From an uncultured Bacteroidales bacterium (GTDB lineage: Bacteria; Bacteroidota; Bacteroidia; Bacteroidales; UBA932): a stretch of 64,000 nucleotides of DNA. The position numbers and the translations under genes are program-made. Shown one piece after another: positions 2,514-59,411 of this stretch. The stretch lies in assembly GCA_944322715.1 (NCBI GenBank), contig CALUPT010000009.1:56671-120670 (forward strand), written 5' to 3'. Under the pieces are notes generated by a model. It worked only from the letters and a program-made list of their open reading frames with translations. It was not told where the DNA came from and ran no database searches. The first letter of the stretch is position 1, and each line of letters starts with the position of its first letter.

Positions 2514-2550
2514 AAGCCTGACGGACAATTCCAACTTACATAAACTATAA

Positions 2551-2611: not shown

Positions 2612-2732
2612 TTATGTCTATGTAAAACAAGGAAGTGTTTTCGCTTATAGAATCGATCGGAATCGGAATAGCAAATCTATCACCTGACCGGCTCAAGGAT
2701 ATGGTTGAAAAGTATTTCAGGATTTAATTGTG

Positions 2733-4938: not shown

Positions 4939-5008
4939 TTCTCCTTGTTCTTATGCGTTATTTCATATCTTTTATGTCCACTAAAATCAAGAAAACATAT
5001 AATGATTT

Positions 5009-6310: not shown

Positions 6311-6327
6311 TTATTTGAACACTTGCC

Positions 6328-7248: not shown

Positions 7249-7261
7249 TGGGTCAAGTCAT

Positions 7262-7297
7262 GTTTTCCGGCAAAAATAATTATTTTTGCCGGAAAAC
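7262..7297. promoter_or_regulatory. perfect 36-bp palindrome carrying two back-to-back TAnnTTTG -7 boxes (candidate bidirectional promoter/operator)
   Basis: GTTTTCCGGCAAAAATAA|TTATTTTTGCCGGAAAAC, read directly. TATTTTTG lies at 7281-7288 on the + strand and is mirrored at 7271-7278 on the - strand. It sits between divergent starts 7248 (-) and 7305 (+). Confidence 0.5.
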
Positions 7298-7304
7298 ATA
7301 CAAC

Positions 7305-9371: not shown

Positions 9372-9393
9372 TCTTTGATATTTGCAACAACTG

Positions 9394-10185: not shown

Positions 10186-10212
10186 TTAATGTTGCTTGAG
10201 TTCTATTGTTTT

Positions 10213-11639: not shown

Positions 11640-11652
11640 GTGCGCTGTTTTA

Positions 11653-34336: not shown

Positions 34337-34448
34337 CCGGAAGCGGACCTCACCGCCGCAAGGCCTTGCAGCAAAGAGTGTCCAGACACAGCCGCAATCC
34401 GTAACAAAAATTTAACAATAATGTAATAGACTGCCAACATACCGATGA

Positions 34449-34456
34449 TATTTTTG
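34449..34456 (+). promoter_or_regulatory. TATTTTTG -7 box upstream of the phosphate transporter gene
   Basis: Lies 22 nt upstream of the ATG at 34478. Confidence 0.4.
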
Positions 34457-34477
34457 CAGTCCAGTAATATATTGTTT

Positions 34478-36794: not shown

Positions 36795-36925
36795 GTTTAA
36801 GACATGCCACTATCCGCACGGTGAAACCCATCGTGGGAGACAGTTGAAAATTCCTTATTTTTGATTATTTTTGTGTTTTGCGCCCGATTTACTGCCGCGC
36901 CGGACATGGAAAACATTATAACGAC

Positions 36926-38347
36926 ATGAAACACAGACTGATTGCGACAATCGCCATTGCAGCCATGCCTGCGGCGGGATATTGGGCATCCGCCCAGGAG
37001 TATGTATCGCAGAGACCTGCAGAGCAGGACAGGCTTTTCCGCTCGGAAGCCGTGGAGGACAAGATCATCGAAGTGCAGGGGCTGCTCACCAATCCGAAAC
37101 TGGCATGGATGTTCGCCAACTGCTTCCCGAATACCCTGGACACCACCGTACATTTCAGAGAAAACGAGGATGGAAGTCCGGACACCTTTGTCTATACCGG
37201 AGACATCCATGCAATGTGGCTCAGGGATTCAGGGGCACAGGTGTGGCCGTATGTCCAGCTGGCGAATGAAGATGAACACCTGCGCGAGATGATAGCAGGA
37301 GTGATCACCAGACAGTTCAAGCTGATCAACATAGACCCTTACGCAAACGCATTCAACGATGGTCCTACGGGAGGGGAATGGATGTCCGACATCACGGAGA
37401 TGAACCCGAACGTGCACGAAAGGAAATGGGAAATAGACTCCCACTGCTACCCTATCCGTCTCGCCTACCGGTACTGGAAGACCACGGGGGATGAATCCGT
37501 CTTCGGAGATGACTGGCTCGCTGCCATCCGCAACACCCTCAAGACATTCAAGGAGCAGCAGCGCAAGGATGGTCCCGGTCCGTATTCGTTCATGAGAAAG
37601 ACCGAAAGGCAGCTGGACACCAAATGCTGCAGCGGATACGGCAACCCTGTCAACCCGGTAGGCCTGATAGTCTCATCCTTCCGTCCGTCGGATGATGCGA
37701 CGACATTCGATTTCCTGGTGCCTTCCAATTTCTTCGCAGTGACATCCCTGCGCAAGGCAGCGGAGATCCTCGACAGTGTCAACCGTGAGAAGGAGCTCGC
37801 GGCAGAATGCAGGGCGCTTGCAGATGAGGTCGAAAAGGCTCTGAAGAAACACGCCATTGTCAAGCACCCGAAATACGGGAAGATATACGCATTCGAGGTG
37901 GACGGGTTCGGCAATGCCTACCTTATGGATGATTCCAACGCGCCGAGCCTGCTGTCCATGGCATATCTCGGGGATGTGGATGTGAATGATCCTATATACC
38001 GGAACACCAGACGTTTCGTCTGGAGCGAGGACAATCCTTATTTCTTCAAAGGCACGGCAGGAGAAGGTATCGGCGGACCGCATATCGGATATGACATGAT
38101 ATGGCCGATGAGCATCATGATGAAGGCCTTCACCTCGCAGGATGATGCCGAAATCAAATGGTGCATCGAGACCCTTATGACAACCGATGCAGGGACCGGC
38201 TTCATGCACGAGTCTTTCCACAAGGACAATCCGGAGAAGTTCACCCGCGCCTGGTTCGCCTGGCAGAACACACTTTTCGGGGAGCTCATCCTCGAACTCA
38301 TCGATGAAGGCAGACTCGACCTGCTCAACAGCATAGACATAAAATAG
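36926..38347 (+). CDS. glycoside hydrolase family 125 (exo-alpha-1,6-mannosidase-like)
   Basis: TGDIHAMWLRDSGAQVWPY and the DUF1237/GH125 pattern. Start at MKHRLIATIAIAAM (signal peptide). Confidence 0.8.
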   Translation: MKHRLIATIAIAAMPAAGYWASAQEYVSQRPAEQDRLFRSEAVEDKIIEVQGLLTNPKLAWMFANCFPNTLDTTVHFRENEDGSPDTFVYTGDIHAMWLRDSGAQVWPYVQLANEDEHLREMIAGVITRQFKLINIDPYANAFNDGPTGGEWMSDITEMNPNVHERKWEIDSHCYPIRLAYRYWKTTGDESVFGDDWLAAIRNTLKTFKEQQRKDGPGPYSFMRKTERQLDTKCCSGYGNPVNPVGLIVSSFRPSDDATTFDFLVPSNFFAVTSLRKAAEILDSVNREKELAAECRALADEVEKALKKHAIVKHPKYGKIYAFEVDGFGNAYLMDDSNAPSLLSMAYLGDVDVNDPIYRNTRRFVWSEDNPYFFKGTAGEGIGGPHIGYDMIWPMSIMMKAFTSQDDAEIKWCIETLMTTDAGTGFMHESFHKDNPEKFTRAWFAWQNTLFGELILELIDEGRLDLLNSIDIK

Positions 38348-38407: not shown

Positions 38408-40240
38408 ATGACATCAGGAAAAATCCTATCCATCGCAGCCGGCATCTTGGCCGGGATGACAGCCTTTCTTCAGGGCGGCAGTATCTCCGCGGCAGACCTG
38501 CCGCGTCCGGAATACCCGAGACCTCAGTTCGAAAGGTCCGAATGGGTCAACCTCAACGGACAGTGGAGCTATACATTCGATTTCGCACGCTCAGGAATGG
38601 ACAGGGAGCTGTTCCGAAGCGAAGGCTTCGACGGGCAGATAACCGTACCGTTCGCACCCCAGAGCGAACTTTCAGGAGTCGGATTCACCGACTTCATCCC
38701 TGAAATGTGGTACCAGCGCAGGCTCGAAATCCCTGCGGACTGGGATGGGAAAAGGATTCTGCTGCATTTCGGAGCGGTGGACTACATTGCTTCGATATAC
38801 ATTGACGGAAAGATTGCCGGCAGGCACTGGGGAGGCTCATCCTCCTTTACCATCGACATTACCCGGCTGGTCAGTGCAGGAAAGACCCACAACATGGTAA
38901 TCCGTGTGGAGGATGACGAACGGTCGGGAGAATATGCAAAGGGGAAACAGTGCGGAAGATACGCATCGTTCGGATGCGAATACACCCGTACCACCGGCAT
39001 CTGGCAGACAGTCTGGATGGAAGCAGTCCACAAGGACGGACTGAAGGATGTCTACGTAATCCCTGACCTGGACCAGAGCAGGTTTGTATTCAGACCTGAA
39101 TACCATGCAGTGCAGCAGGGGCAGAAACTCCGCATCCGCATCCTGGACAACGGAAAGACAGTCAGCGAGAAGACCATACCGGCCACGGCACAGAGCCAGG
39201 CAGAACTCACCGTGAAGAAAGTGAAGACATGGTCTCCGGAAGACCCTTTCCTCTACGACATCGAATACGATGTGCTCTCCGCTGAAGGAAAGGTCATCGA
39301 CCACGTCAAGGCGTATGCCGGGATGAGGAAGATACAGGTTATCGGCAACAGGCTCTATCTCAACGATGAACCGGTGTATCTCCGCCTCGTCCTCGACCAG
39401 GGATTCTATCCTGACGGGATATGGACGGCACCGACCGATGAAGCCCTGAAACGCGACATAGAGCTTTCCATGGCAGCCGGATTCAACGGAGCAAGGCTTC
39501 ATCAGAAGATATTCGAGCCGCGTTTCCACTACTGGGCAGACAGGCTCGGCTACCTGACCTGGGGCGAGTCCGCCAGCTGGGGAGCCAACATCAACCGCAT
39601 CGGGAGTGCGCGCAATTTCCTGACGGAATGGGAGGAAGCCGTAGTGAGAGACAGGAACCATCCGTCCATCATCATGTGGACACCTTTCAACGAGACCTGG
39701 GAGCACCCTGACAACAGGGAGGCCGCACGCGAGGCCTGCCGTTTCGTGTCGGACATCTATGACCTCACCAAGGACCTGGATTACAGGCCGTGCCACGATG
39801 TAAGCGGCAACTATCATGTCAAGACAGATATCTTCTCGGTGCACCAGTACGAACAGGATCCGGCGAAATTCACTGCCTGGATCGCTCCAGTGGATGGCAA
39901 GGTAAGGCAGCACGACCTCGAGAACCGTGAAGTGGAATATGACGGCCAGCCTTATCTGGTGGATGAATACGGCGGCATCAAGTGGGTCGTAGGGCAGGAG
40001 TTCTCCGAAATATCATGGGGCTACGGAAACGCGCCGAAGACAATAGAGGAGGTCTACGAAAGGATGGAAGCCCTCACGGATGCCATCCTCGGTTTCGACC
40101 ATATCTGCGGCTACTGCTACACCCAGCTCACTGATGTCGAACAGGAGCAGAACGGCATCTACAACTATGACCGCACCGAGAAGTTCGACATGGAGCGTAT
40201 CCGCGCCATTTTCTCCAAAGTCCCGGAAGGATTCAGATAA
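38408..40240 (+). CDS. glycoside hydrolase family 2
   Basis: PRPEYPRPQFER...LHFGAVDY...VYIDG sugar-binding N-terminal domain. NHPSIIMW...FNETWE in the TIM-barrel acid/base region. Confidence 0.8.
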   Translation: MTSGKILSIAAGILAGMTAFLQGGSISAADLPRPEYPRPQFERSEWVNLNGQWSYTFDFARSGMDRELFRSEGFDGQITVPFAPQSELSGVGFTDFIPEMWYQRRLEIPADWDGKRILLHFGAVDYIASIYIDGKIAGRHWGGSSSFTIDITRLVSAGKTHNMVIRVEDDERSGEYAKGKQCGRYASFGCEYTRTTGIWQTVWMEAVHKDGLKDVYVIPDLDQSRFVFRPEYHAVQQGQKLRIRILDNGKTVSEKTIPATAQSQAELTVKKVKTWSPEDPFLYDIEYDVLSAEGKVIDHVKAYAGMRKIQVIGNRLYLNDEPVYLRLVLDQGFYPDGIWTAPTDEALKRDIELSMAAGFNGARLHQKIFEPRFHYWADRLGYLTWGESASWGANINRIGSARNFLTEWEEAVVRDRNHPSIIMWTPFNETWEHPDNREAAREACRFVSDIYDLTKDLDYRPCHDVSGNYHVKTDIFSVHQYEQDPAKFTAWIAPVDGKVRQHDLENREVEYDGQPYLVDEYGGIKWVVGQEFSEISWGYGNAPKTIEEVYERMEALTDAILGFDHICGYCYTQLTDVEQEQNGIYNYDRTEKFDMERIRAIFSKVPEGFR

Positions 40241-40262
40241 AAGCCATATACAGATGACTCTT

Positions 40263-40298
40263 CAGCCCGGCCCCTTAAGAGGTCGGGCTGATTTTTTT
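40263..40298 (+). terminator. rho-independent terminator after the GH2 gene
   Basis: CAGCCCGGCC-ccttaaga-GGTCGGGCTG followed by ATTTTTTT. Confidence 0.75.
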
Positions 40299-40329: not shown

Positions 40330-40337
40330 TATCTTTG
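40330..40337 (+). promoter_or_regulatory. TATCTTTG -7 box upstream of the ECF sigma gene
   Basis: Matches TAnnTTTG. Lies 58 nt upstream of the TTG at 40395. Confidence 0.4.
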
Positions 40338-40394
40338 CATAAACGAGAAAGCCGGCGGACTCTGACGAGTCCGCTGACAAAAAACAACCGGGCT

Positions 40395-40939
40395 TTGAAG
40401 AAAGACTATCAGACAGACCGTATCGCAAACGGTGATGAAGCTGCATTCAGGCAGTTCATCATTACCAATACCCCCCCTGCCACGCCTATGCATATCGCAT
40501 TCTGAAAAGGAAAGAACTGGCAGAAGATGCTGTCAGTGAAGTCTTTGTATCTGTCTGGGAAGCGCGCAGACATCTTCCGGACATAGAAAACATCAACGCC
40601 TGGCTCCACAGGCTCACACTCAACAAATCCATCTCCCTGCTGCGGAAAGAATCCAGATGGGTCTCAGGCTCGGGAAAAATCACCGACCTGGAACTCAATA
40701 TCGCAGACCCCGGCCCCGAATCGGAATACGACCGGGAAACAATCTACAGACTCAACAAGGCCATCGGTGAACTTCCGCCCAAATGCCGGCATGTACTCTA
40801 TCTTGCCAAAATCGAGAAGATGCCATACAGGGAAATCGCGCATATCCTCGGGATATCAGTCAAGACAGTCAGCAACCATATCACATACGCCATGAAACGG
40901 CTGACCGCAATATTGAAGATTTTTCTGTTTTTCATATAG
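40395..40939 (+). pseudogene. ECF-type RNA polymerase sigma-70 factor, frameshifted in a C7 tract
   Basis: Frame A (TTG at 40395) reads MKKDYQTDRIANGDEAAFRQFIITNTPP... and stops at 40503. Frame B reads ...YAYRILKRKELAEDAVSEVFVSVWEARRHL...MPYREIAHILGISVKTVSNHITYAMKRL and ends at 40939. The junction is C7 at 40471-40477. Not in the ORF track as a single ORF. Confidence 0.8.
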
Positions 40940-40985
40940 GGATTTTCAGGCGCTGCTGCGACATACAGATAAAGACACTCCGATT

Positions 40986-41849
40986 ATGGGAAAGGATGAA
41001 AACAGAATAGACGAATTGCTGGAGCTGACCGGGCAGCCGCCGGCGCCCGACATCGATGCGATAGTAAGAAAGACTTTCAGACGCATAGCCGTCAGAAAGA
41101 GAAGCAGGATCATCATCTCCACGGTTTCCGCCGTCATTTCCGCAGCAGCAGTGATCCTCCTCGCGGTTTTCCTGCATCCCTACGGCAGCTCCATGATACC
41201 GGGTGTGCCGGCAAAAAATCTGAACACATTCGACACTCCGGCCGGAGCCATCGCGACCCTTCATCTTCCGGACGGGTCGCTGCTCAAGGTCAACGCAGAC
41301 TCAAAAGTCATCTATCCCGACTCTTTCAGGGGAAAGGAACGCAGGATATTCGTGGACGGCGAGGTCTATCTGGATGTCGCACACGACCGGAACCGGCCTT
41401 TCATTGTCTGCACCGACGGATTCGATGTCAAGGTACACGGGACGAAATTCAACGTATGCACGACCGGTGATGGCAACGGGAATGTCGTACTGGCCGAAGG
41501 GTCGGTGGAAGTGTCTGTGCCGGGAGGCAGCGGGATAATGCTTTCCCCGGGACAGATGGCCTCAATGGCAGAGGGACTTATCTCGGTTTCCGAGGTCCGC
41601 GCCGAAGACCATATATGCTGGGCGGAAGGATACATCAACCTTTACGGCGAGACCATCGACAAGGTTGCCGCCATGCTTTCCGGACACTACGGCATCCCGG
41701 TCAGCTGCAGCGACACCACATCCCGCCTGTATGGCAAATTGGAGTTCAAGGACAGCATAGAGGATGTGCTGAAGAACATCGCCAGGCTTGCCAGAGTCAA
41801 CATCTCATACTCTTCATCAGAGGGTTACATCATAACGGGGGCAGATTGA
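40986..41849 (+). CDS. FecR family anti-sigma factor
   Basis: Single TM segment (IIISTVSAVISAAAVILLAVFL). FecR domain (LHLPDGSLLKVNADSKVIYP...RIFVDGEVYLDVAHD...PFIV). Confidence 0.85.
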   Translation: MGKDENRIDELLELTGQPPAPDIDAIVRKTFRRIAVRKRSRIIISTVSAVISAAAVILLAVFLHPYGSSMIPGVPAKNLNTFDTPAGAIATLHLPDGSLLKVNADSKVIYPDSFRGKERRIFVDGEVYLDVAHDRNRPFIVCTDGFDVKVHGTKFNVCTTGDGNGNVVLAEGSVEVSVPGGSGIMLSPGQMASMAEGLISVSEVRAEDHICWAEGYINLYGETIDKVAAMLSGHYGIPVSCSDTTSRLYGKLEFKDSIEDVLKNIARLARVNISYSSSEGYIITGAD

Positions 41850-41884
41850 CCCTTATTTTCACATAACACCTAACAACTAAATTC

Positions 41885-44800
41885 ATGTACAGATTTCATC
41901 GAACCGCCGATTCGATAAGGGGACTTATCGCATTGGTCACAGGATTGTTGTTCCTGTCCGGACCTGCTGTCAGCGCAAGAGTGGCAGTGAAATGGGACAG
42001 CAGACAGGATCTGTTTTCGGTACGTGCCCAGGACGAGACCATCGGGAACGTCTTCGAGTACATCGAAAAGAACAGCAGCTACATCTTCATCTATGAAGAG
42101 ACTGTCGAATCCAGACTGTCCGCAAGCGTGGATGTCCGCCTTGAAGGCCAGGACATCGAATCCATCCTACAGGCATTGTGTTCGCAGGCAAGGCTGGAAT
42201 ATCTGATTTCGGGAAGACAGATCGCCGTATGGCCTGAAGGCGGCACTGCTCCGGACATTTCCGACAAAGACATCACCGCCACAGGCAAAGTGACCGACAT
42301 CAACGGAGAACCGCTCATCGGGGCATCCGTATTCATCAAGGGGACCGATACAGGAGTCGTGACAGACCTGGACGGGAGATATACCATTTCCCTCAAGGCC
42401 GGGAACATGCTGACGATATCCTATATCGGATACCAGGCAAAAGAAATCATGGCTGTCGGGGACAGGGAACAGGTCACGGTCCTCACGCCGGACTCCCGTC
42501 TGCTCGAGGAATCAGTGGTGGTAGGATACGGTGTACAGAAAAAGATCAACCTCACCGGAGCGGTGGATGTGGTGGACAGCGAGGAGCTTGTCGGACGCTC
42601 GGCATCCAACACCTCTTCCCTGCTCGTGGGCATCGTACCTAACCTCAACGTAACCCAGAGCAACGGACGTCCGGGCCAGGGGGCAAGCCTCAATATCAGG
42701 GGTGTCAACTCCATAAGCAGCAGCGCAGGACCGCTCGTGCTGGTGGACGGCATCGAAGCAAACATAGACAATGTCAACCCTAACGACATCGAGTCCATAA
42801 GCGTGCTGAAAGATGCCTCCGCAGCTGCAGTGTACGGAGCCCGTGCCGCATACGGAGTGATACTCATCACCACCAAGTCCGGCGGCGACGGCAAGGCCCA
42901 CGTCTCGTACAACGGCCGTTTCAGTTTCAGTACACCTACTACATCCACGGACTTCGAGACAAGAGGCTACTACTCGGCCTCCATCGTAGACATGTTCTTC
43001 TCCACATACCAGGGGTCGCAATATACCAACTACAATGATATCGACTACTACGAACTGTGGATCAGGCGCAACGACAAGGTCGAGAATCCCGAGCGTCCGT
43101 GGGTGGTGGAAGAGAACGGGCAGTACAAATACTACGGCAACTTCGACTGGTACAATTATTTCTTCGACAACACGAGACCTACCTGGGAACACGATCTCAG
43201 CGTGTATGGAGGAAACGACAAGATCAGCTACCGCATATCGGGCGGACTGTACGACGGCAAGGGAGTGCTGAAGCAGGGCTCTGGAGACGACTACAAGAGA
43301 TGGAACTTCCGCTCCAAGGTTTCGGCGCAGATAACCCCGTGGCTGAAAATCAGCAACAACACCTCTTTCCAGTACAACAAATATACATTCAATTCTCCCG
43401 GTGCCGTAGCAGGCCTGTTCTCCAGCGCCTCGGTTCACGCACTGGCATCCATAATGCCGTATCATCCGGATGGCACCGCCTCCTGGAGGGTTCCGACTGC
43501 CATTGCATCCAACTATATCCCTGCAAACGGGGCCCACACGGTCGTCCAGTATGACAAGACCTTCAACCAGGATTCAGACAATGTGTTCGGAACGATTTTC
43601 GAGGCCGTGATAACACCTGTGGACCATTTCACCATCACGGCGAACTATTCATACAGCCAGTCGGAGCACAAGGCCATTAACAGGACCGTACAGGTTCCGT
43701 ATTCCGAGGTTCCAGGTGTAGTGGAATGGAGGACAGACCTTACCGACAAGCTGTACGAGAACCGCGACAAAAACGAATACCAGGCAGCCAACGCATACGC
43801 CAACTACGACAACACCTTCTCCGGCCACCATATCGGGGTCACCGCCGGTGTCAACTACGAGACAAGATACTACTTCGATCTGACCGCGGAACGCTCGAAC
43901 CTTATCTCCCAGGATATGAATGACTTCAACCTGGCAAAAGGAGAGGAGATGAACATAAGCGGAGGAAAGAACAGATATGCGCTTTTCGGAGTGTTCTACC
44001 GTGTCAACTATGACTACAAGGAACGCTACCTGTTCGAGGCCAGCGGCCGCTATGACGGCAGTTCGCGTTTCGCTCCGGGACACCGCTTCGGTTTCTTCCC
44101 TTCATTCTCCGCAGGCTGGAGGATCGACCAGGAGAAATTCTTCACTCCTGCAAGAAAATACATAAGCAATATGAAACTCCGGCTCTCCTACGGTATGCTC
44201 GGCAACCAGCAGGTGGGATACTACGACTATATCCAGACCATAGATTCAGGATCATCCATCAGCTATGCTTTCGGCGACACCAACCGCGCCACAGGAGCCA
44301 CGGTATCCGCCCCTAATGCATCAGACCTGACCTGGGAGACGGTCACCAACATGAATGCCGGTATAGACCTCGGTTTCTTCAACAACAGGCTCAGCCTCTC
44401 CGCCGATGCCTACATAAGGGACACGAAGGGTATGCTGATGGCATCCCAGGATCTCCCGAGCGTCTACGGAGCATCCTCCCCTAAATCCAATGCGGCAAGC
44501 CTGAGGACCAAGGGATGGGAGATAATGCTCTCATGGAAGGACAACCTGATGCTGGCCGGACGCCCGTTCAACTACTATGTATCCGCCACCCTGGCCGACT
44601 ACATCTCGCATGTGACATACTACAACAATGACAACAAGACCATAGGCACTCCATACACCGGGCAGAGGCTCGGAGAAATGTGGGGCTATGTAGTGGACGG
44701 ATATTTCCTGACCGATGAGGAAGCGGCGAACTATCCTGTAGACCAGTCGTATGTCAACAACATGATCAATATCTGCGCAAAGGATCCGGGGCTGCACGCA

Positions 44801-45442
44801 GGAGACCTCAAGTTCGTGGATATGGACGGAGATGGGAAGATAAACCCTACGTTGAGCGCGAACGACATCAATGACCAGGTCGTAATAGGAAACTCACTTC
44901 CACGGTACACGTATTCCCTGAGCTTCGGAGGCACCTGGATGGGATTCGACCTTTCGGTAATGTTCCAGGGCGTAGGCTACCAGAACTGGTATCCTGCAGG
45001 AGAGACAGGCATGTTCTGGGGACCGTACACCCGTCCTTACCAGTCGTTCATTCCTACAGACTTCATGTCCAACGTATGGTCTGAAAGCAATCCTGATGCA
45101 TATTTCCCTCGTCCGAGAGGATATGTGGCCCTTGCAGGAGACGGAGGCTCGCGCGAGCTTACCGTTGTCAACACGAAATATCTTCAGAATGTAGGATACC
45201 TCAGACTCAAGAGTCTCGTGTTCGGATACTCCCTCCCTCAGAAATGGATGGACAAGATCAAGATGGAAAAGATCCGTGTCTATTTCAGCGGAGAGAATCT
45301 TTTCACCGTATCGCCTCTCAAGAGCAAATATGTAGATCCTACCCTTGCCGGAAGTGCCAATTCGTGGAGCAACGGTAACACCAACGTCAACGGATATCCT
45401 CTCAACAGGACATTCTCTTTCGGTGTAGACATAACTTTCTAA
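41885..45442 (+). CDS. SusC/RagA family TonB-linked outer membrane protein with N-terminal STN signalling domain
   Basis: STN segment (VRAQDETIGNVFEYIEKNSSYIFIY), CarboxypepD_reg (TGKVTDINGEPLIGASVFIKGTDTGVVTDLDGRYTI), TonB-box/plug region and a 22-strand-size barrel. 1185 aa. Confidence 0.95.
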   Translation: MYRFHRTADSIRGLIALVTGLLFLSGPAVSARVAVKWDSRQDLFSVRAQDETIGNVFEYIEKNSSYIFIYEETVESRLSASVDVRLEGQDIESILQALCSQARLEYLISGRQIAVWPEGGTAPDISDKDITATGKVTDINGEPLIGASVFIKGTDTGVVTDLDGRYTISLKAGNMLTISYIGYQAKEIMAVGDREQVTVLTPDSRLLEESVVVGYGVQKKINLTGAVDVVDSEELVGRSASNTSSLLVGIVPNLNVTQSNGRPGQGASLNIRGVNSISSSAGPLVLVDGIEANIDNVNPNDIESISVLKDASAAAVYGARAAYGVILITTKSGGDGKAHVSYNGRFSFSTPTTSTDFETRGYYSASIVDMFFSTYQGSQYTNYNDIDYYELWIRRNDKVENPERPWVVEENGQYKYYGNFDWYNYFFDNTRPTWEHDLSVYGGNDKISYRISGGLYDGKGVLKQGSGDDYKRWNFRSKVSAQITPWLKISNNTSFQYNKYTFNSPGAVAGLFSSASVHALASIMPYHPDGTASWRVPTAIASNYIPANGAHTVVQYDKTFNQDSDNVFGTIFEAVITPVDHFTITANYSYSQSEHKAINRTVQVPYSEVPGVVEWRTDLTDKLYENRDKNEYQAANAYANYDNTFSGHHIGVTAGVNYETRYYFDLTAERSNLISQDMNDFNLAKGEEMNISGGKNRYALFGVFYRVNYDYKERYLFEASGRYDGSSRFAPGHRFGFFPSFSAGWRIDQEKFFTPARKYISNMKLRLSYGMLGNQQVGYYDYIQTIDSGSSISYAFGDTNRATGATVSAPNASDLTWETVTNMNAGIDLGFFNNRLSLSADAYIRDTKGMLMASQDLPSVYGASSPKSNAASLRTKGWEIMLSWKDNLMLAGRPFNYYVSATLADYISHVTYYNNDNKTIGTPYTGQRLGEMWGYVVDGYFLTDEEAANYPVDQSYVNNMINICAKDPGLHAGDLKFVDMDGDGKINPTLSANDINDQVVIGNSLPRYTYSLSFGGTWMGFDLSVMFQGVGYQNWYPAGETGMFWGPYTRPYQSFIPTDFMSNVWSESNPDAYFPRPRGYVALAGDGGSRELTVVNTKYLQNVGYLRLKSLVFGYSLPQKWMDKIKMEKIRVYFSGENLFTVSPLKSKYVDPTLAGSANSWSNGNTNVNGYPLNRTFSFGVDITF

Positions 45443-45454
45443 AGGACTATCTCA

Positions 45455-47239
45455 ATGAAAACGAAAATATACAGAATACTTCTGGCCCTGCCGGTACTGG
45501 CTATGATGACAGCCTGTGAAGGGATGCTGAACCTGACACCTGAAGACAGGGTGACTCCAGCCACATTCTTCAACACGGAGAGCAACCTGGAGCTGTTCAC
45601 CAACAACTTCTACCCTTCCGTACTGCCAGGAGGGTCCATCTATGAAGACGAGGCCGATGGCATCATCAACCCTATCCTCGATGAAGCCATCAGCGGACAG
45701 AGGATAATCCCGGAGACATCCAGCGGAGTCGATGGATGGGGATGGGATGTCCTCCGACAGATAAACTACTATCTCGAAAACTCCCACATGTGTGAAGATA
45801 CGGAAGCACGCAACCATTATGATGGTGTCGCCAGATTCTTCCGCGCGTATTTCTACTTCTACAAAGTGAGAAGGTTCGGGGATGTGCCGTGGTATGACCA
45901 CGTGATCGGGTCCGCCGACAGGGAAGATCTCGACAAGCCGCGCGATTCCCGTGAACTCGTAATGCAGAACATAATCGCCGACCTCGACTGGGCTGCAGAC
46001 AATCTGAGACGACAGAAGGATGTCTACAGAGTCACCCGCTGGACCGCACTTGCGCTCAAGTCCCGCGTCTGCCTGTTCGAAGGCACCTTCCGTAAATACC
46101 ACGGACTCGGGGACTGGGAGAAATATCTCGAGGAATGCGAGAAGGCATCCGATCTGTTCATGACTGAAAGCGGATATACCCTGTACAACGAAGGAAGCAC
46201 ACCTTACAAGGACCTGTTCACATCGATGGAAGCCATTCCGGAAGAAATCATAATGGCAAGGGACTACAGCCAGAGCCTCAGTCTGACGCACGGCGTCCAG
46301 AACTATGAGATATCATCGGGTTCAGGATGCGCAGGAGTGACAAGACGTATAGTAGGAGCCTACCTTATGAGCAACGGAGAAAGGTTCTCCGACCAGGAAG
46401 GATATGAGAAAATGACATTCCTTGATGAAGTGAAGGACCGCGATCCCCGTCTCGCGCAGACATTCCGCACCCCGGGGTACACAATCGACGGAGTCTCCGC
46501 CCCGCCTGACCTGAGAATCGCCAAGCTCGGCTACCAGCCTATGAAATACTATATTTCAAAACAGTGGGACAATTCCTCCTGCGTCGATCTCCCTCTGTTC
46601 CGCACGGCTGAAGTCTATCTCAATTTCGCTGAAGCCAAGGCAGAACTCGGGACACTGACCCAGGAAGACCTCGACAGGTCAGTCAACCTTATCCGCAACC
46701 GCGCGGACATGCCGGATCTGAACAAGGATGAAGCCAATGCCGACCCGGATGAGTGGCTGGAGTCAGAGCAGTGGGGATATCCCAATGTGGACAAGGGAGC
46801 CAACAAGGGCGTAATCCTCGAAATCCGCAGGGAGCGTACTGTCGAACTGTTCATGGAAGGGTTCCGCTATTACGATATGATGAGGTGGAAGGAAGGTAAG
46901 GTATTCGAAAAACCTTTCCTCGGGATGTATATCCCTGCTCCGGGAAATTATGACCTTGACGGAGACGGCACCCCGGATGTCTACATATATGATGACAACA
47001 CACAGGAAGCTCCCGATGCCGCTGTTTCCGTCCAGCTGAAACTCGGGGAACGGATCTACCTGTACGACCCGGAGACCGGGCAGGTCGGCAACAAGGGATA
47101 CCTGACCATCCACCAGGATCTCGTGCGCCACTGGAACGAAGACAGGGACTACCTCTACCCTATCCCGACAAAGGACAGGATACTGACAAACGGAGCCCTC
47201 TCGCAGAACCCTGGCTGGGATGATGGCCTCCCGTTCTAG
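45455..47239 (+). CDS. RagB/SusD family nutrient-uptake outer membrane lipoprotein
   Basis: LAMMTAC lipobox. SusD-like TPR core (FRAYFYFYKVRRFGDVPWY, RTAEVYLNFAEAKAELG). Confidence 0.9.
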   Translation: MKTKIYRILLALPVLAMMTACEGMLNLTPEDRVTPATFFNTESNLELFTNNFYPSVLPGGSIYEDEADGIINPILDEAISGQRIIPETSSGVDGWGWDVLRQINYYLENSHMCEDTEARNHYDGVARFFRAYFYFYKVRRFGDVPWYDHVIGSADREDLDKPRDSRELVMQNIIADLDWAADNLRRQKDVYRVTRWTALALKSRVCLFEGTFRKYHGLGDWEKYLEECEKASDLFMTESGYTLYNEGSTPYKDLFTSMEAIPEEIIMARDYSQSLSLTHGVQNYEISSGSGCAGVTRRIVGAYLMSNGERFSDQEGYEKMTFLDEVKDRDPRLAQTFRTPGYTIDGVSAPPDLRIAKLGYQPMKYYISKQWDNSSCVDLPLFRTAEVYLNFAEAKAELGTLTQEDLDRSVNLIRNRADMPDLNKDEANADPDEWLESEQWGYPNVDKGANKGVILEIRRERTVELFMEGFRYYDMMRWKEGKVFEKPFLGMYIPAPGNYDLDGDGTPDVYIYDDNTQEAPDAAVSVQLKLGERIYLYDPETGQVGNKGYLTIHQDLVRHWNEDRDYLYPIPTKDRILTNGALSQNPGWDDGLPF

Positions 47240-47244
47240 ATCAC

Positions 47245-47307
47245 TGTCATCCTGAGCGAAGCCCAAGAAACATTAAAAGTGTCATCCTGAGCGCAGCGAA
47301 GGATCTG
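47245..47307 (+). repeat. two tandem copies of a REP-like element (TGTCATCCTGAGCGnAGC...)
   Basis: 47245-47262 is TGTCATCCTGAGCGAAGC (truncated copy). 47280-47307 is TGTCATCCTGAGCGCAGCGAAGGATCTG. Both lie just after the susD stop. Confidence 0.8.
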
Positions 47308-47341
47308 AAACACAAGAACAAACAAAATAAAAAACAACATT

Positions 47342-49231
47342 ATGAACAACAACATAATCAGAATCTGTCTGGCCGCTGCCCTGCCCGCAATGCTATGGTC
47401 CTGCAGCGAGAAGATGGACAACTCCGACTTCAGCGACGTGCTGGGAAAGGACTACAACCAGGAGATACTCTGGAATGTAGACTCCCTCGCATTCCGCAGA
47501 GCCGGCTGGAGCACAACAGATGCAAGCTATGGAGCGGAGATACGCCAGGCACAGATAAAAATGCTTGGAGGCACACAGAGCGTCTCCTATATAACCTATC
47601 CATCGAATATATTCATCACCAGAATAGCGGCTGCAGACAACGGTGTCGCAAACACGAGCGAGATAGCCACCGGGAGCAAGGCGGTATTCGCAATCAACGG
47701 CGGCCCGTGCGATGCCTCCGGTGCCACATCATTCGTAATGATAGGCAACAAGGTCATCAGTGAAGACTCCGGAAGCAGTTCCGGAGCCGGAGCCCTGGCC
47801 ATCAACGAGACTCTGGACGGAAGCACCATCGGCATTGTCTCCAATGCCAGCAGTTCAGCTCTCCAGACAGACTATACCTCCGCGCTGATTGCCGGACCTG
47901 TCCTTGTCGCAGGCGGCAAGGAGCAGACATTTGCCGATACGGAAGAGAACAACACCCGTCAGGCCCGTTCCATCATAGGCACGGATGACAAAGGCAACTA
48001 TTTCATGGCCGTCATTGACGGAGGCGTGACCGGACAGGCAGATGGAGCTACAATGGCAGAGGCTGCATTCATTGCCCGCATCATCGGCATGCAGGATGCC
48101 GTGTGTCTCTCCGGCGGGAATGCCTCGACTCTCTGGTCCGGCACGGACGGGGTGGTCAGCCATCCTTCCGGAAACGGCAGCTATGACAACGCGGGAGAAA
48201 CCGAAGTCGCCAACATAGTCTACGTCGAGCTCAACACCCCGTTTGCCGGCGGCGACGGTACAAAGAACGACCCGTACCAGATAGGTACTTCACGGCATAT
48301 CCAGAATATGTCCTCGGCCCTTGAAGAAGGAACTGCAGTCTACTTCGAACTTATCGATGACATCGATATGGAAGGCATCGACTGGATACCTCTTAACTAC
48401 GCCGACCCGTATATGAAGATTGTCCATCTGGACGGCAACGGACATACGATACATAACTTCTTCAGCTCATACGCATCATACCCGAGCTTCTTCGGGGTGC
48501 TGTACGGTGAATGCCGCGACATCAGGTTCCTCAATGCGAAGATTGATGCGACACAGTCTACTGCGGCCGGTATAATCGGCGGTTATCTCGGGACCACCGG
48601 CAAACCGGGACTGCTTGAAAATGCATATATAAACGGAACTGTGGCCGCAGGAACGGAAAACAACTTCGGAGGTATAGCGGGAAATCTGCGCCAGGGAACC
48701 ATCCGTAATTGCCATGCAGATGTAGAAGTCTCCTGCAGTAAGGACATCAATGCGACATGGAATAATGGTTTGGGAGGAATTGCCGGCCGGGTGTATGACA
48801 ATGCCATCATAGAAAACTGCTTTGTCACAGGCAAGATACTTGGAGACAACACCTACAATGTCGGAGGCGTAGCAGGACATTCTGAAGACTGGACCACAAA
48901 CCGGACAGTCCGGAACAACATATCATGGGTATCTGAACTGAACGGCCGCGCTGCAGTAGGAAATATATTCGGACGCTGGCGTGCAACTGAAAACAGCGTA
49001 ATTGAAAACAACTACAGAAACCCTGCATGCCAACTGACGACATACGCTAATGACGGGACTGTATCCGAAGGTATCTATAACGAGGGCAATACCAGCGACT
49101 TCGCTGATTGCGGCACACCTACGGACAACCCGTGCGAAACTGCCACAACTCTCGGCTGGGATACGGATATCTGGGATCTTACCGGAGCGACTCCTCAGCT
49201 GAAACTGTTCATAGACAGTGATGGTGAATAA
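47342..49231 (+). CDS. phosphodiester glycosidase (NAGPA/DUF2233) domain lipoprotein fused to a GLUG-motif beta-helix domain
   Basis: LWSCS lipobox. AINGG...ARSIIGTDDKGNYFMAVIDG...CLSGGNASTLW matches the phosphodiester glycosidase pattern. The C-terminal half has repeated GGIAG/GGVAG (GLUG) units. Confidence 0.7.
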   Translation: MNNNIIRICLAAALPAMLWSCSEKMDNSDFSDVLGKDYNQEILWNVDSLAFRRAGWSTTDASYGAEIRQAQIKMLGGTQSVSYITYPSNIFITRIAAADNGVANTSEIATGSKAVFAINGGPCDASGATSFVMIGNKVISEDSGSSSGAGALAINETLDGSTIGIVSNASSSALQTDYTSALIAGPVLVAGGKEQTFADTEENNTRQARSIIGTDDKGNYFMAVIDGGVTGQADGATMAEAAFIARIIGMQDAVCLSGGNASTLWSGTDGVVSHPSGNGSYDNAGETEVANIVYVELNTPFAGGDGTKNDPYQIGTSRHIQNMSSALEEGTAVYFELIDDIDMEGIDWIPLNYADPYMKIVHLDGNGHTIHNFFSSYASYPSFFGVLYGECRDIRFLNAKIDATQSTAAGIIGGYLGTTGKPGLLENAYINGTVAAGTENNFGGIAGNLRQGTIRNCHADVEVSCSKDINATWNNGLGGIAGRVYDNAIIENCFVTGKILGDNTYNVGGVAGHSEDWTTNRTVRNNISWVSELNGRAAVGNIFGRWRATENSVIENNYRNPACQLTTYANDGTVSEGIYNEGNTSDFADCGTPTDNPCETATTLGWDTDIWDLTGATPQLKLFIDSDGE

Positions 49232-49251
49232 CTGAAATTATCCGTGAGCGC

Positions 49252-49287
49252 GTGCCGCTGCCGGCTTTACCGGAAGATCAGCGGCAC
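49252..49287 (+). terminator. intergenic nested hairpin between the two phosphodiester glycosidase genes
   Basis: GTGCCGCTG-(CCGGctttaCCGG)gaagat-CAGCGGCAC. No T-run follows, so it may act as an attenuator or RNA-processing site. Confidence 0.35.
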
Positions 49288-49315
49288 CGCTCCCTGGTGA
49301 ATAAACATTATAAAA

Positions 49316-50353
49316 ATGAAAAGAGAAAAAAGATTCATTGCTCTTGCAGGGACGGCACTCATTCTCGCCATCTCCTGCGGAAACGCCTACAAGATCGACA
49401 TTCCTCACTACGACTACGGGCAGAAGGAAGAAGAGGAAATCTCTCTGCCGGTCACCCCGGATCCAGATGCGCCCAAGGTGCAGACGCTCAAGGACCCGAC
49501 CGGGAAATGGCGTACGGAAAAACTCGACAACGGACTTGTCCTCTATACTTTCAGGGGATATGATGATGTCAGCGCTGCCAACCAGATCGTGAACGTGCTG
49601 GAAGTCAACCTCAGCGATCCGAGGTATTCGATAAAGTTTGCGTATGCGGACAAGGGAGAGATCAACTCGAACATGGTGAAGAACGAGCCGGCAGCCATAG
49701 CCGGGATCAACGGAGGATACGAACAGGAAGCGATTTACATAAAGATAAACAATGCTATCATCTCTCAAGTATCCCTCCAGCCCGGACATCTCCGCTACTG
49801 GAAGCACGAGGCCTGCATCTTCTCCGAAGGTGACAGGACAGTCGGCATCCTGTATGGAGGCAAGGACGGCGAGAAAGCCATCGAGGCCTACAACAGTCTC
49901 GAGGCTTCCAACATTATCGCAAGCGCGCCCATGCTGATCAATGACTACGACCCGATAGGGGAAGACTTCATCGGAGGGACGTTTACCGACGAGCAGCTGA
50001 ACCAGTTCGACTATGAGGACTACCGCCGCCATCAGGGCGTACGCCATCCCCGTACCGTATATGCCCTCACTGAAGACAACGACCTGCTGCTGATAGCCAT
50101 CGACGGCAGATGGAGCGGTACGGCTGAAGGTATGAACGCCGCAGAAGTGACCCGGTTCATCTCCAGGTATTTCAACCCGCAATGGGCCATCAATATGGAT
50201 GGAGGAGGCTCCACGACTCTGACTGTCAAGGGACTCGGCCATCCGGAGACCAATGTGGTCAACTATCCTACTGATGGAGGCACACACGACCACACCGGGG
50301 AAAGGAGTGTCTCTACACACATCCTCGTCCTTTACGATGAAGATGCCGAATGA
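49316..50353 (+). CDS. phosphodiester glycosidase (NAGPA/DUF2233) family lipoprotein
   Basis: LAISCG lipobox. AGINGGY...HPRTVYALTEDNDLLLIAIDGR...AINMDGGGSTTL. Confidence 0.8.
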   Translation: MKREKRFIALAGTALILAISCGNAYKIDIPHYDYGQKEEEEISLPVTPDPDAPKVQTLKDPTGKWRTEKLDNGLVLYTFRGYDDVSAANQIVNVLEVNLSDPRYSIKFAYADKGEINSNMVKNEPAAIAGINGGYEQEAIYIKINNAIISQVSLQPGHLRYWKHEACIFSEGDRTVGILYGGKDGEKAIEAYNSLEASNIIASAPMLINDYDPIGEDFIGGTFTDEQLNQFDYEDYRRHQGVRHPRTVYALTEDNDLLLIAIDGRWSGTAEGMNAAEVTRFISRYFNPQWAINMDGGGSTTLTVKGLGHPETNVVNYPTDGGTHDHTGERSVSTHILVLYDEDAE

Positions 50354-50393
50354 CCTGTACGATACAGTCATGACCTTATGAAATATCCAGCAA

Positions 50394-50424
50394 GAGGCCG
50401 GTGTCCGTTTCAGACATCGGCCTC
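50394..50424 (+). terminator. 12-bp-stem hairpin after the second phosphodiester glycosidase gene
   Basis: GAGGCCGGTGTC-cgtttca-GACATCGGCCTC (one G.U pair). No T-run follows. Confidence 0.45.
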
Positions 50425-50693
50425 TGTCATCCTGCACCGTTCCATTGTCATCCTGAACAGAACCGTCCCTTTGTCTTCCTGAACAAGCCGTCTCCTTTGT
50501 CATCCTGAACGGAGCCGTCAGGCGGAGTGAAGGATCTGAAGCACCAGCAGGGCCTTAGTATGGCTTCCGTACCAGATTCTTCGCTACCGCTCAGAATGAC
50601 AATGTACTATCACTCAGAAGGACAGTGCAGAAAAGGCTCAGAAGGACAGGTAGGGTGCTCGGAATGACTATGCAGAAATGGCTCGGAATGACA
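50425..50693. repeat. mirror array of REP-like half-units: 4 forward TGTC(A/T)TCCTG(A/C)AC units, a central inverted pair of full elements, and 5 reverse CTC(A/G)GAA(T/G)GACA units
   Basis: Forward units start at 50425, 50446, 50472 and 50498. The full forward copy is 50498-50538 and the full reverse copy is 50573-50601. Reverse units are at 50590, 50613, 50637, 50658 and 50682. The array lies between convergent genes. Confidence 0.8.
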
Positions 50694-52797: not shown

Positions 52798-55446
52798 TTA
52801 TATGATCTCCATATCGGCTGAAAGCATCCAGCCCTGACGGCCATCCGCAAGACTGATGTTGCGCCAGTCTCCGACTTCATCCAGGATAGTGACCTTTGTC
52901 CCTTCATGAAGGATGAACAGGTCCGTGGAAGTCTCCGAAGATGGGGAACTCTTGACGGAGGACACAGGTCGCATGACTATAGCACTGTCAGCCCTCTGGT
53001 AGTCGGACTTCTGCCAAAGGGAAAACCACAGGCACATACCGGCGAAAAGGATAAAGACTATGGCAGAGAAGAATCCCGTCCTGCGTGCCGCTACCCTTCC
53101 TGACAGAAGATACAGCAGAAGCATCGCAAGGAAAACCGCGAAGCAGAAGATGCTGAGACCTGCCCACGAATCAGAATCGAGCACATAGCAGACATCCCTC
53201 GCCCAGCTCTTCAGAAGAAACTCCGGCACCACATCTATCCTGTCCTGTATCAGCTCGGAGGTTATTCCGAGATTGTATCTCGCATCGGAACAGGATGGAT
53301 CGAGCTTGAGGGCTCTTTCATAATAGAGAATGGCGCGAGGATAATCCTCAAGCTTGAAATATGCATCTCCTATATTGCAGTACAGCGGAGCCGACTCGAG
53401 CCCGGCAGCTGATATGGATGAATACCCCTGGAGAGCCATATCCCACTGCCCGGCAGAGTATGCTTCTGTAGCCTTGTTCCACAAGGAGTCTATATACTGT
53501 GTCTCTGCGGATTCCGCAGGCATCTGGACTGCAAGCAGGGCCGCTGCTGCAAGAGCGGCACCTGCAGCCTTGCCTTTACCGGAAGGCCGTCTTGTATCGG
53601 ATGTCTTTTTCTTCATATCGGATTCGATTGATGATATGACCTTCACTGCATTCTGATAATGGGCTTCCATCGCATCGTGGCCTGCATCAGGAGAATACCT
53701 TGCGAACTCACACGCATCTATAAGTCCGACGAATTCCCCTGCAAGGTCCTCTGATATTCCGTTCTCCGCGAGCTGCTGGGCCACCGTGTCCTTTGAGAAG
53801 TCCGCGACCGCAATGTTCAACTTGTCAGATATGTACCCGACAAGAGCCTTGTGAAGTTCCTCGTAAAAGGCCGTGTACAGATTCTGCTTCAGGAATTCTC
53901 CGGCCTGGCGAAGTCTCCTGACAGCCATCTTGCTTGCCTTCCTTGTCCTAGTGCCTGCCACATCGGCCCTGCGGGCAGCCATCTTCCTGAACGCGAGCCA
54001 CAGGATGAAAGCCAGGAGAGCAAGTCCTGCCAGCAACATCCAGTATCCGGTCGAGAACACGAAGAACCGGCCTTTCGATGACATCGATGGCATCTTGGTA
54101 GTGATGAACCTTATATCTTCATTGAGACTCTTGACCCCGCTTCTGTTCACGCCCTGTACAGCTGTCCCGGGCTGTGCCGCCGGATCATCCTTGCCCTTGT
54201 CCACGTGGTATCTGACGGGTTGCGTACTCAATGTCACGTACCTGCCGGCATTTATGTCATAGTAGCTGTATCTGATGGCAGGAATCTCGAAATCACCGTG
54301 GCTTCTCGGGATAAAAGGATATTCATATATCTTGCTCCCCGATGTGCCGCCCGTACCTTTGTCCGTCCTCTCTGACACCTTTGTGTCATAGACTTCCATA
54401 TCAGGAGGGAAAGACACCTCAGGAGCCTCCAGAAGCGATATGTTGCCTTTGCCCTTGACAGTGATGACAAGAGACGCGGCCTCATGCGTCATAAGAGAAT
54501 CCTTGCTCAGGGATGCCGAGATGCTGAACTTCCCGACTCCACCGCCGAATGTGGCAGGGGCACCAGCCGGAAGAGGAGAGACATTGATTGTATAAGGGTC
54601 TGTCATCACCCGTTTGCGTATTGTCCTCTGGTTCTCGAAGAAACTGTCGAATATGCTTGCCCCTCCTGTCGGAGCCACACGGACATTCACGACACATACG
54701 AGCTCGGCCGGATCGATGGTGATCGAACCTGCCTGCTGGGGAATGAGCACATATTTCCTGAGGACTGCTGAATAGTATATGTTCCCATCCACATTCTCCC
54801 TCTGGAACTCGATATTTGTAGGAGCCTCCACTTCCTGGCTCCAGAAACCGTTGAAAGCAGGGAAACGGGCATCTTCAAACCCTGCAATATTCACTCTCTG
54901 GTAAAGTTTAAGGGTAGCCTCGATCGGCTCTCCCACCACCGCGCTCTTCCTGCTGAAGGTAAACCGCATGAAAAGGTCATCATCCCCTATCGCTCCGACA
55001 GAAGAGGGGGCCGATGACTGGACTCCGCCCTGATTTCCCCTTCCAGACGAAGATGAGCCGCTGTTGGCGACCACCTCGACCGTAGCAGTGCCGGATGTAA
55101 TCTGTTTCCCGCCCTTGAGTCTGGCCGTAGCAGCCGGAATGGTGAACTTTCCGGTCTTCTTGGGCATCAATATATAGGTGTAGGTGAACTGGGATGACCT
55201 CGTAGTCTTGCCGTTGATTATCTGCACGCTTGTAGAGCGGCCCTGCTGAGGTCCCCAGACAAGCTGGAAATCATCACCCTGACTCCAGCTGAAATCCTTG
55301 GGGTTCTCATCCCCTTCAACTATGAAAGTGACATTGAACTGCTCATCAGCCGCCACCACGTTCGGGACATCGACCCTCATTGTGGTCTGTGCGGTAAGCA
55401 TTAGAGCCTGTAAGGCTATGGATATTGTCAGAAATAATTTTTTCAT
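52798..55446 (-). CDS. BatD-like protein fused to TPR + SH3 (BatE-like) C-terminal region
   Basis: N-terminus: signal peptide plus VDVPNVVAADEQFNVTFIVEG...KTGKFTIPAATARL (BatD). Then TM segments, TPR (AILYYERALKLDPSCSDARYNLG), and a terminal SH3b-like segment (RPVSSVKSSPS...ILHEGTKVTILDEVGDWRNISLADGRQGWM). Confidence 0.75.
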   Translation of the reverse strand: MKKLFLTISIALQALMLTAQTTMRVDVPNVVAADEQFNVTFIVEGDENPKDFSWSQGDDFQLVWGPQQGRSTSVQIINGKTTRSSQFTYTYILMPKKTGKFTIPAATARLKGGKQITSGTATVEVVANSGSSSSGRGNQGGVQSSAPSSVGAIGDDDLFMRFTFSRKSAVVGEPIEATLKLYQRVNIAGFEDARFPAFNGFWSQEVEAPTNIEFQRENVDGNIYYSAVLRKYVLIPQQAGSITIDPAELVCVVNVRVAPTGGASIFDSFFENQRTIRKRVMTDPYTINVSPLPAGAPATFGGGVGKFSISASLSKDSLMTHEAASLVITVKGKGNISLLEAPEVSFPPDMEVYDTKVSERTDKGTGGTSGSKIYEYPFIPRSHGDFEIPAIRYSYYDINAGRYVTLSTQPVRYHVDKGKDDPAAQPGTAVQGVNRSGVKSLNEDIRFITTKMPSMSSKGRFFVFSTGYWMLLAGLALLAFILWLAFRKMAARRADVAGTRTRKASKMAVRRLRQAGEFLKQNLYTAFYEELHKALVGYISDKLNIAVADFSKDTVAQQLAENGISEDLAGEFVGLIDACEFARYSPDAGHDAMEAHYQNAVKVISSIESDMKKKTSDTRRPSGKGKAAGAALAAAALLAVQMPAESAETQYIDSLWNKATEAYSAGQWDMALQGYSSISAAGLESAPLYCNIGDAYFKLEDYPRAILYYERALKLDPSCSDARYNLGITSELIQDRIDVVPEFLLKSWARDVCYVLDSDSWAGLSIFCFAVFLAMLLLYLLSGRVAARRTGFFSAIVFILFAGMCLWFSLWQKSDYQRADSAIVMRPVSSVKSSPSSETSTDLFILHEGTKVTILDEVGDWRNISLADGRQGWMLSADMEII

Positions 55447-55457
55447 CTGTCCGATTT

Positions 55458-56240: not shown

Positions 56241-56241
56241 A

Positions 56242-57243: not shown

Positions 57244-57255
57244 AATTATCTCGTT

Positions 57256-59408: not shown

Positions 59409-59411
59409 CTC

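Follow-up and report, generated by a model that had tools for sequence, protein, structure and literature searches.

The stretch of DNA analysed here (the window) comprises 64,000 nucleotides from an uncultured gut Bacteroidales bacterium (contig CALUPT010000009.1, positions 56,671 to 120,670), and our subject is a polysaccharide utilization locus (PUL) within it whose sole enzyme candidate belongs to the family of NAGPA, the vertebrate uncovering enzyme. The locus runs from an extracytoplasmic function (ECF) sigma gene through a FecR-type anti-sigma gene, susC and susD to the genes of two lipoproteins of 629 and 345 amino acids (aa) (Table 1). This layout had been proposed in an earlier reading of the DNA (the original prediction) and holds for FecR, SusC, SusD and both lipoproteins, which match PF09992, the NAGPA family, with 81.3 bits (629 aa) and 74.2 bits (345 aa) against a gathering cut-off of 25, but not for the sigma gene, whose frame is broken. 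susC and susD lie on the same strand with 12 bp between them, as expected of the adjacent pair of a PUL. Profile searches of the operon proteins found no glycoside hydrolase (GH), polysaccharide lyase (PL) or carbohydrate esterase (CE) domain, bearing out the earlier statement that neither lipoprotein has a conventional GH or PL domain, and none of the GH76, GH92, GH38 and GH18 enzymes of mannan and N-glycan PULs lies inside the operon. NCBIfam has no specific name for either lipoprotein. We place the end of the operon at about position 50353 because a SpoU methylase gene and glyA lie downstream in convergent orientation. A 421-aa open reading frame (ORF) on the opposite strand (49238-50503) has zero family matches and was rejected as a spurious gene.

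Table 1. Features of the PUL and of the upstream gene pair in the window, with two examples of phosphatase fusions from related loci (identified by locus number).
Feature	Position	Strand	Remarks
GH125	36878-38347	+	PF06824 E 1e-175; 800 bits to BT3781
GH2	38408-40240	+	
Intrinsic-terminator-like hairpin	40262-40291	+	11-bp stem, 8 G-C pairs, T7 tail
ECF sigma-70 factor gene, frameshifted	40335-40939	+	TTG start at 40335; C8 allele encodes 201 aa
Poly-C tract in sigma gene, candidate on/off switch	40471-40477	+	C7 in the window
FecR-type anti-sigma factor, one transmembrane segment	40986-41849	+	PF04773 E 1.5e-18; FecR_C (PF16344) E 2.4e-5
SusC/RagA TonB-dependent transporter, 1185 aa	41885-45442	+	TIGR04056, 882 bits
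SusD-family outer-membrane lipoprotein	45455-47239	+	PF07980 E 2e-43
629-aa lipoprotein, N-terminal NAGPA-fold part	47342-48241	+	Signal peptide, lipobox Cys21
629-aa lipoprotein, C-terminal GLUG right-handed beta-helix	48242-49231	+	3n6z match E 1e-34
345-aa NAGPA-family lipoprotein, predicted catalytic	49316-50353	+	PF09992, DGGGS motif
Fusions of catalytic NAGPA and a histidine-acid-phosphatase-like domain, either order, ~720 aa, among L031-L085	e.g. L044:9935-12124, L052:8687-10843		

Judged by its motifs, the 345-aa lipoprotein (lipobox cysteine at residue 21) looks like the sole catalytic NAGPA protein of the locus. Its AlphaFold model (pLDDT 87) is matched in Foldseek by the catalytic domains of vertebrate NAGPA and by BACOVA_00430 of Bacteroides ovatus (3ohg), with E-values of about 1e-13 and a probability of 1.0, and the top 12 matches are all NAGPA or 3ohg. 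The protein keeps the motifs NMDGGGS, HQGxRxPR and DGR, the YE and WK pairs and R330; invariant in 32 homologues are D295-G-G-G-S299, R330, E136, W162-K163 and E234 and likewise H239-Q-G-x-R243-x-P-R246 and D263-G-R265. In human NAGPA, the invariant DGGGS loop (D286-S290) is essential, R316 is required for activity, and E226/T227 contact the N-acetylglucosamine (GlcNAc) and T260/R316 the phosphate of the ligand (PMC13474241). Profile alignment of the 345-aa protein to zebrafish and Xenopus NAGPA (6pki, 6u11) pairs DGGGS with DGGGS and R330 with the arginine of the CPR motif and places E234 in the Glu-Thr region, which suggests that E234 and R330 are the counterparts of human E226 and R316.

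The 629-aa lipoprotein is different. The original prediction counted two phosphodiester glycosidases at this locus; only the 345-aa protein keeps the catalytic motif, and the 629-aa protein, which also has its lipobox cysteine at residue 21, is probably a non-catalytic glycan-binding protein. Its N-terminal domain has the NAGPA fold (TM-score 0.71 to 3ohg) with SGGNA in place of DGGGS and a threonine in place of the conserved arginine. The same loss is seen in the window protein and all 8 orthologues, in which the aspartate is replaced by S, T, A or G, the loop reads GGNA or GGDA, the arginine is replaced by T, A, S, K or Q, and the WK and ED pairs have for the most part been deleted. Because other residues are invariant while the catalytic ones are lost (W44, R53, W56, Y86 and R206 are among those invariant in 23 orthologues), the domain is maintained, though probably not for catalysis. 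A GLUG beta-helix makes up residues 301-629; it is 30% identical to BACOVA_03286 (3n6z, TM-score 0.79) and resembles the N-terminal domain of streptococcal IgA1 proteases. In relatives, GLUG is attached to active NAGPA and also fused to GH20, SGNH esterase and DUF1735 modules, which argues for a portable domain with a putative role in substrate targeting. Because both GLUG-bearing forms, the degenerate one and an active fusion described below, have the N-terminal leader DNSxFSD in common, we infer that the 629-aa protein descends from an active NAGPA-GLUG fusion after duplication.

The proteins encoded ahead of the two lipoproteins have the makings of a trans-envelope signalling module. The FecR-type anti-sigma factor is recognised by both PF04773 and PF16344, and SusC carries an extension of ~130 aa ahead of its CarboxypepD_reg domain with a weak STN/FecR_C-like match. 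Comparison of SusD with solved structures yielded no close relative and no substrate hint. The sigma gene, which the original prediction implied to be intact, is frameshifted in the window: no ORF of more than 75 aa spans the region 40330-40940, and three-frame translation shows the coding sequence leaving frame 3 for frame 2 where it meets a run of seven cytosines (C7). Insertion of one C into this run gives a protein matching TIGR02985, the Bacteroides-type ECF sigma factor, end to end, over residues 17-172 (E 1.6e-34), and an intact gene is found only in alleles with eight cytosines (C8) from other samples. The two allele classes are metagenome contigs sharing identical downstream proteins: the window, L001/L086, L002 and L087 have C7 and lack a sigma gene call, and L004 and L088-L091 have C8 and a 201-aa sigma factor. 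When similar places were grouped, a sigma gene was called in 9 contigs and not called in ~14. Both alleles are present in each of two sequencing projects, and in 7 of 9 sequences compared over 3.86 kb the length of the tract is the sole difference. The tract is thus a homopolymer within a coding sequence, the length of which varies among otherwise identical genomes and toggles the frame; in a relative whose sigma factor is 80% identical, the tract at this site is an in-frame C6. The C7 allele should be null, because the first start codon in its frame leaves only 38 codons and no start before sigma region 4 yields more. From these comparisons, the poly-C run appears to be a hypermutable tract and possibly a phase switch. 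Phase variation in Bacteroides is usually ascribed to invertible promoters, and the tract, if real, would turn a PUL on and off in an unusual way. One C7 contig, L087, is identical upstream and has 18 single-nucleotide polymorphisms in 250 bp inside susC (L087:3600-3864), which suggests recombination or a strain-mixture chimera.

Conservation of the gene set was assessed in a scan of one genome per species, which yielded over 520 proteins related to the 345-aa lipoprotein; the best 79 loci were analysed. The closest genomes by this protein are an uncultured Bacteroidales metagenome-assembled genome (92% identity) and Candidatus Cryptobacteroides intestinavium (90%). The sigma/anti-sigma/SusC/SusD/NAGPA/GLUG cassette is present in 28 of the best 79 loci, in hosts that include Cryptobacteroides, Prevotella, Bacteroides, Sphingobacterium, Chitinophaga and Pedobacter; NAGPA and GLUG proteins are present in these 28 loci, usually with ECF sigma and FecR ahead of them. 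SusC of the cassette loci is at least 44% identical to that of the window, and reaches 63% once the two nearest relatives are set aside, as compared to ~27% for non-orthologous SusC proteins among the same 79 loci; SusD is 47-58% identical. The cassette comes in two arrangements. Sphingobacterium (6 species), Chitinophaga, Pedobacter and Bacteroides vicugnae have a catalytic NAGPA-GLUG fusion of ~680 aa after SusD, which is the only enzyme of these loci except in B. vicugnae, where there is a second NAGPA protein, and in 8 of the 10 fusion-type loci the next gene lies on the opposite strand. Cryptobacteroides, Prevotella and their relatives have the order of the window, a degenerate NAGPA-GLUG protein followed by a separate catalytic NAGPA protein. 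A Pfam census of 60 same-strand neighbours of the cassette loci found no recurrent carbohydrate-active enzyme (CAZyme); a calcineurin-like phosphoesterase alone recurs (twice). In rumen loci, GH78, GDPD, GH130 and GH31 are each seen just once or twice, too few to name a substrate.

The fusions and neighbours of the family point to phosphate chemistry. In 28 full-length homologues from rumen Bacteroidales, catalytic NAGPA is fused to a histidine-acid-phosphatase-like domain of ~390 aa, 17 times in the order NAGPA-HisPhos and 11 times in the order HisPhos-NAGPA, and the RHGxR and HD motifs as well as an intact DGGGS loop are present in all copies. The fused domain shows 30% identity (E 3e-36) with an unfused protein of related loci that matches His_Phos_2. 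Among the 79 loci, GLUG is found in 45, a histidine phosphatase in 33, an SGNH esterase in 12 and GH20 in 9; a major facilitator superfamily transporter of the PgtP/UhpC/GlpT type, that is, of the sugar-phosphate:Pi antiporter type, is also found in 9, and EEP and purple-acid-type phosphoesterases in 4 each. A locus from another metagenome (L092:3085-19027), with a SusR-type regulator, has the order SusC-SusD-DUF1735/GLUG-GLUG-NAGPA-His_Phos_2-NAGPA-Exo_endo_phos, and thus combines the same set of enzymes with another type of regulation. Given these phosphatase fusions and the phosphoesterase and transporter neighbours, the most economical reading is that the NAGPA reaction yields a phosphomonoester and hence that its substrate is a glycosyl-phosphate diester. 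Outside PULs, a homologue 51% identical to the catalytic protein ends a capsule/lipopolysaccharide (LPS) biosynthesis cluster of Bacteroides cellulolyticus (L011:1-14470) that contains a DegT aminotransferase, Polysacc_synt_2 and a family 2 glycosyltransferase (GT2).

These results favour a model, which we consider fairly probable, whereby the locus is a self-contained PUL for glycans joined by anomeric phosphodiester (glycosyl-1-phosphate) bonds. In the model, the 629-aa protein, with its inactivated NAGPA fold and its GLUG helix, would capture the glycan at the cell surface, and the 345-aa lipoprotein, to judge from its family and active-site residues, would cleave the sugar C1-O-P bond in the manner of the vertebrate uncovering enzyme, giving a free reducing sugar and a fragment ending in a phosphomonoester. 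SusC/SusD, as expected of their families, would import these fragments. The architecture of the regulatory genes suggests that occupied SusC would signal via its N-terminal extension, causing FecR to release the ECF sigma factor and thereby inducing the operon. With its out-of-frame C7 allele, the locus is predicted to be uninducible in the genome of the window and switchable at the level of the population. The original prediction of a SusC/SusD system for sugar-1-phosphate-linked glycans, in which phosphodiester glycosidases take the place of CAZymes, is thus supported by the conservation of the cassette without a recurrent GH or PL, by the phosphatase fusions and by the antiporter and phosphoesterase neighbours, but it has to be amended from two enzymes to one.

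Several points weigh against this model. The window's own locus contains neither a phosphatase nor a sugar-phosphate transporter, and the link to phosphate is made through relatives that are 36-50% identical. Equivalence of the active-site residues to those of human NAGPA is based on hidden Markov model alignments at 17-18% identity and not on superposition. The STN signalling domain that had been assigned to SusC is found below threshold, at 15.2 bits (PF07660, E 0.019) against a cut-off of 28.4 when the N-terminus is rescanned alone. The placement of the two lipoproteins is putative, at the surface or in the periplasm. Moreover, the difference between C7 and C8 could be a recurrent assembly error in contigs of 4-8x coverage. 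The B. cellulolyticus cluster implies that the NAGPA family is not purely catabolic, and some members may process polymers of their own cell. Finally, Das et al. in 2013 reportedly found the B. ovatus protein to be without uncovering activity, and no bacterial member of the family has a demonstrated substrate in the literature searched.

In one rival reading, the bacterial enzyme would be a conventional glycosidase, exo or endo, with a glycan free of phosphate as its substrate, for instance a polymer containing alpha-linked N-acetylhexosamine (HexNAc), and the phosphodiester label would be inherited from the single characterised eukaryotic member. In its favour, vertebrate NAGPA alone is characterised and shares 16-18% identity with the protein, the literature searched reports no activity for a bacterial member, and GH20, GH3 and GH97 are found in some related loci. 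Against it stand the strict conservation of the phosphate-binding DGGGS loop and arginine, the repeated fusion to histidine acid phosphatase in both orders, and the co-location of sugar-phosphate antiporters and of phosphoesterases of three further kinds, and we regard it as quite unlikely. A decaying, non-functional remnant in which the sigma factor is a pseudogene would account for the frameshift at the C7 run, for the C7 frame offering no start ahead of sigma region 4 that gives more than 38 aa, and for the missing sigma gene call in 14 of 23 contigs. All five downstream genes, however, are intact and 100% identical across samples, and alleles that differ solely in tract length over 3.86 kb and are both present in both projects fit reversible slippage or error better than decay, making a remnant improbable.

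The immediately adjacent GH125/GH2 pair raises the question of whether it forms one unit with the locus for yeast or fungal phosphomannan or phosphorylated high-mannose N-glycans, in which NAGPA would uncap Man-1-P-6-Man or GlcNAc-1-P-6-Man (Man, mannose) and GH125 would trim alpha-1,6-mannose. In support of such a unit, the pair lies on the same strand as the locus, GH125 scores 800 bits to BT3781, an alpha-1,6-mannosidase of the Bacteroides thetaiotaomicron mannan locus, GLUG domains further occur in fusions with DUF1735/BT_3987-like_N modules (PF08522), a frequent component of PULs, and one related locus contains GH92. Yet a strong terminator-like hairpin separates GH2 from the sigma gene, confirming the original description of the pair as separately terminated. 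GH125 stands next to the cassette only in the near-identical contigs L001, L002 and L004, and GH2 in addition in L086-L091 and the closest related genome, L007; neither gene is present in the other 78 related loci, and in Sphingobacterium, Chitinophaga and Pedobacter of soil, where the cassette is common, it comes without mannan enzymes. Nor are the nearest relatives of GH2 beta-mannosidases: they are 7xyr (labelled beta-glucuronidase, 670 bits), followed by beta-D-galactofuranosidases (9j6n, 284 bits), and together GH2 and GH125 might point to fungal galactomannan. Because of the terminator and the absence of conserved synteny, we reject the pair as part of the system; it is probably unrelated to the locus, and the use once made of it as evidence for phosphomannan or phosphorylated N-glycans falls away. 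A joint mannan unit is therefore an unlikely reading of the locus.

For a PUL directed at glycosyl-1-phosphate bonds, HexNAc-containing glycosyl-phosphate polymers of bacterial cell walls or capsules are the most likely candidate substrates. Phosphomannan of fungi and phosphoglycosylated glycoproteins of eukaryotes are possible as well, and host Man-6-P-GlcNAc glycans are less likely. We lean towards a microbial wall or capsule polymer because the hosts are Bacteroidota of soil, rumen, gut and mouth, because GH20 and O-acyl esterases are associated with the family, and because GH78 rhamnosidases (2) and a GDPD diesterase (1) are occasionally nearby. More tentatively, we speculate that the cassette represents a phylum-wide class of PULs for glycosyl-phosphate polymers of the teichoic-acid-like or capsular kind, with a non-CAZy depolymerase, an inactivated NAGPA-GLUG binder and a sigma factor that is phase-varied by a poly-C tract.

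The architecture of the locus is that of an ordinary ECF-sigma-regulated PUL; unusual are the NAGPA protein as the only, non-CAZy enzyme, the pseudo-enzyme/beta-helix fusion, the relatives fused to phosphatase and the variable poly-C tract in the regulator. The ECF-sigma/anti-sigma PULs of B. thetaiotaomicron reportedly described by Cuskin et al. in 2015 and Martens et al. in 2008, such as the high-mannose N-glycan PUL BT3983-3994, are similarly composed of an ECF sigma factor, a FecR-type anti-sigma factor, an N-terminally extended SusC, SusD and surface lipoproteins including non-catalytic binders. In contrast to the locus of the window, with its variable homopolymer in the sigma gene, PULs of this type encode CAZymes (GH18, GH92). 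A two-step logic in which a glycosyl-phosphate diester is broken and the phosphomonoester is then removed also has a precedent: the GH92 enzyme CcMan5 uncaps mannosyl-phosphate, and BT2630 and BT3783 are phosphatases of mannan PULs. The enzyme families are unrelated, NAGPA being paired with a histidine acid phosphatase, to which it is fused in relatives. Full-text literature searches found no paper on NAGPA-containing PULs.

Vertebrate NAGPA shares PF09992 and its fold with the 345-aa protein (TM-score up to 0.71), which retains the DGGGS loop and likely equivalents of E226 and R316 (PMC13474241). The bacterial protein differs from it in being only 16-18% identical, in being an outer-membrane lipoprotein without propeptide, EGF stalk or transmembrane anchor, and in being encoded in a nutrient-uptake operon instead of serving a Golgi sorting pathway. 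BACOVA_00430, the prototype of DUF2233, matches the fold of both window proteins (TM-score 0.65 for the 345-aa and 0.71 for the 629-aa protein). Its sequence similarity to the 345-aa protein, however, is confined to the C-terminal third (E 1e-4), and it belongs to another subfamily, the ~285-aa type that L036, L069 and L076 carry as a third gene. Over its C-terminal 330 residues, the 629-aa protein is homologous to BACOVA_03286, annotated as a putative IgA1 protease, and to the N-terminal helix of the streptococcal IgA1 proteases, but it has no protease domain and its helix is attached to a NAGPA fold.

To our knowledge, a crystal structure has been available for bacterial DUF2233/NAGPA proteins since 2010, and no function is known for them. 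Our analysis gives them a compact and conserved genetic context and singles out the likely catalytic copy, and the related clusters across the phylum suggest that phosphate-bridged sugars are used as nutrients in a manner not yet studied. If the model is correct, phosphodiester-bridged glycans (teichoic-acid-like polymers, capsules and phosphomannans) would join the nutrient repertoire of the Bacteroidota, schemes for PUL prediction that are now keyed on CAZymes would gain a new class of enzyme, and the 629-aa protein would exemplify the recruitment of a pseudo-enzyme for glycan binding. The question of induction can be tested in cultured carriers of the cassette, namely Sphingobacterium species and Bacteroides vicugnae.

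Three further features of the window were noted. Directly upstream of GH125 lies the gene of a 757-aa PHO4-family phosphate transporter (34445-36718), the Pfam match of which falls in two stretches. Beyond the end of the locus, an operon of the BatD/TPR/VWA/DUF58/MoxR type, known as the aerotolerance (bat) operon, occupies 52798-61294 on the minus strand, and its gene order is kept in the nearest relatives. Near the beginning of the window, an island of low GC content (2000-11640; 35-39% as compared to about 52%) encodes a PD-(D/E)XK transposase-like protein, glycosyltransferases of families GT4 and GT2, and an AbiEii/AbiEi toxin-antitoxin pair, and it is probably a horizontally acquired surface-polysaccharide segment.

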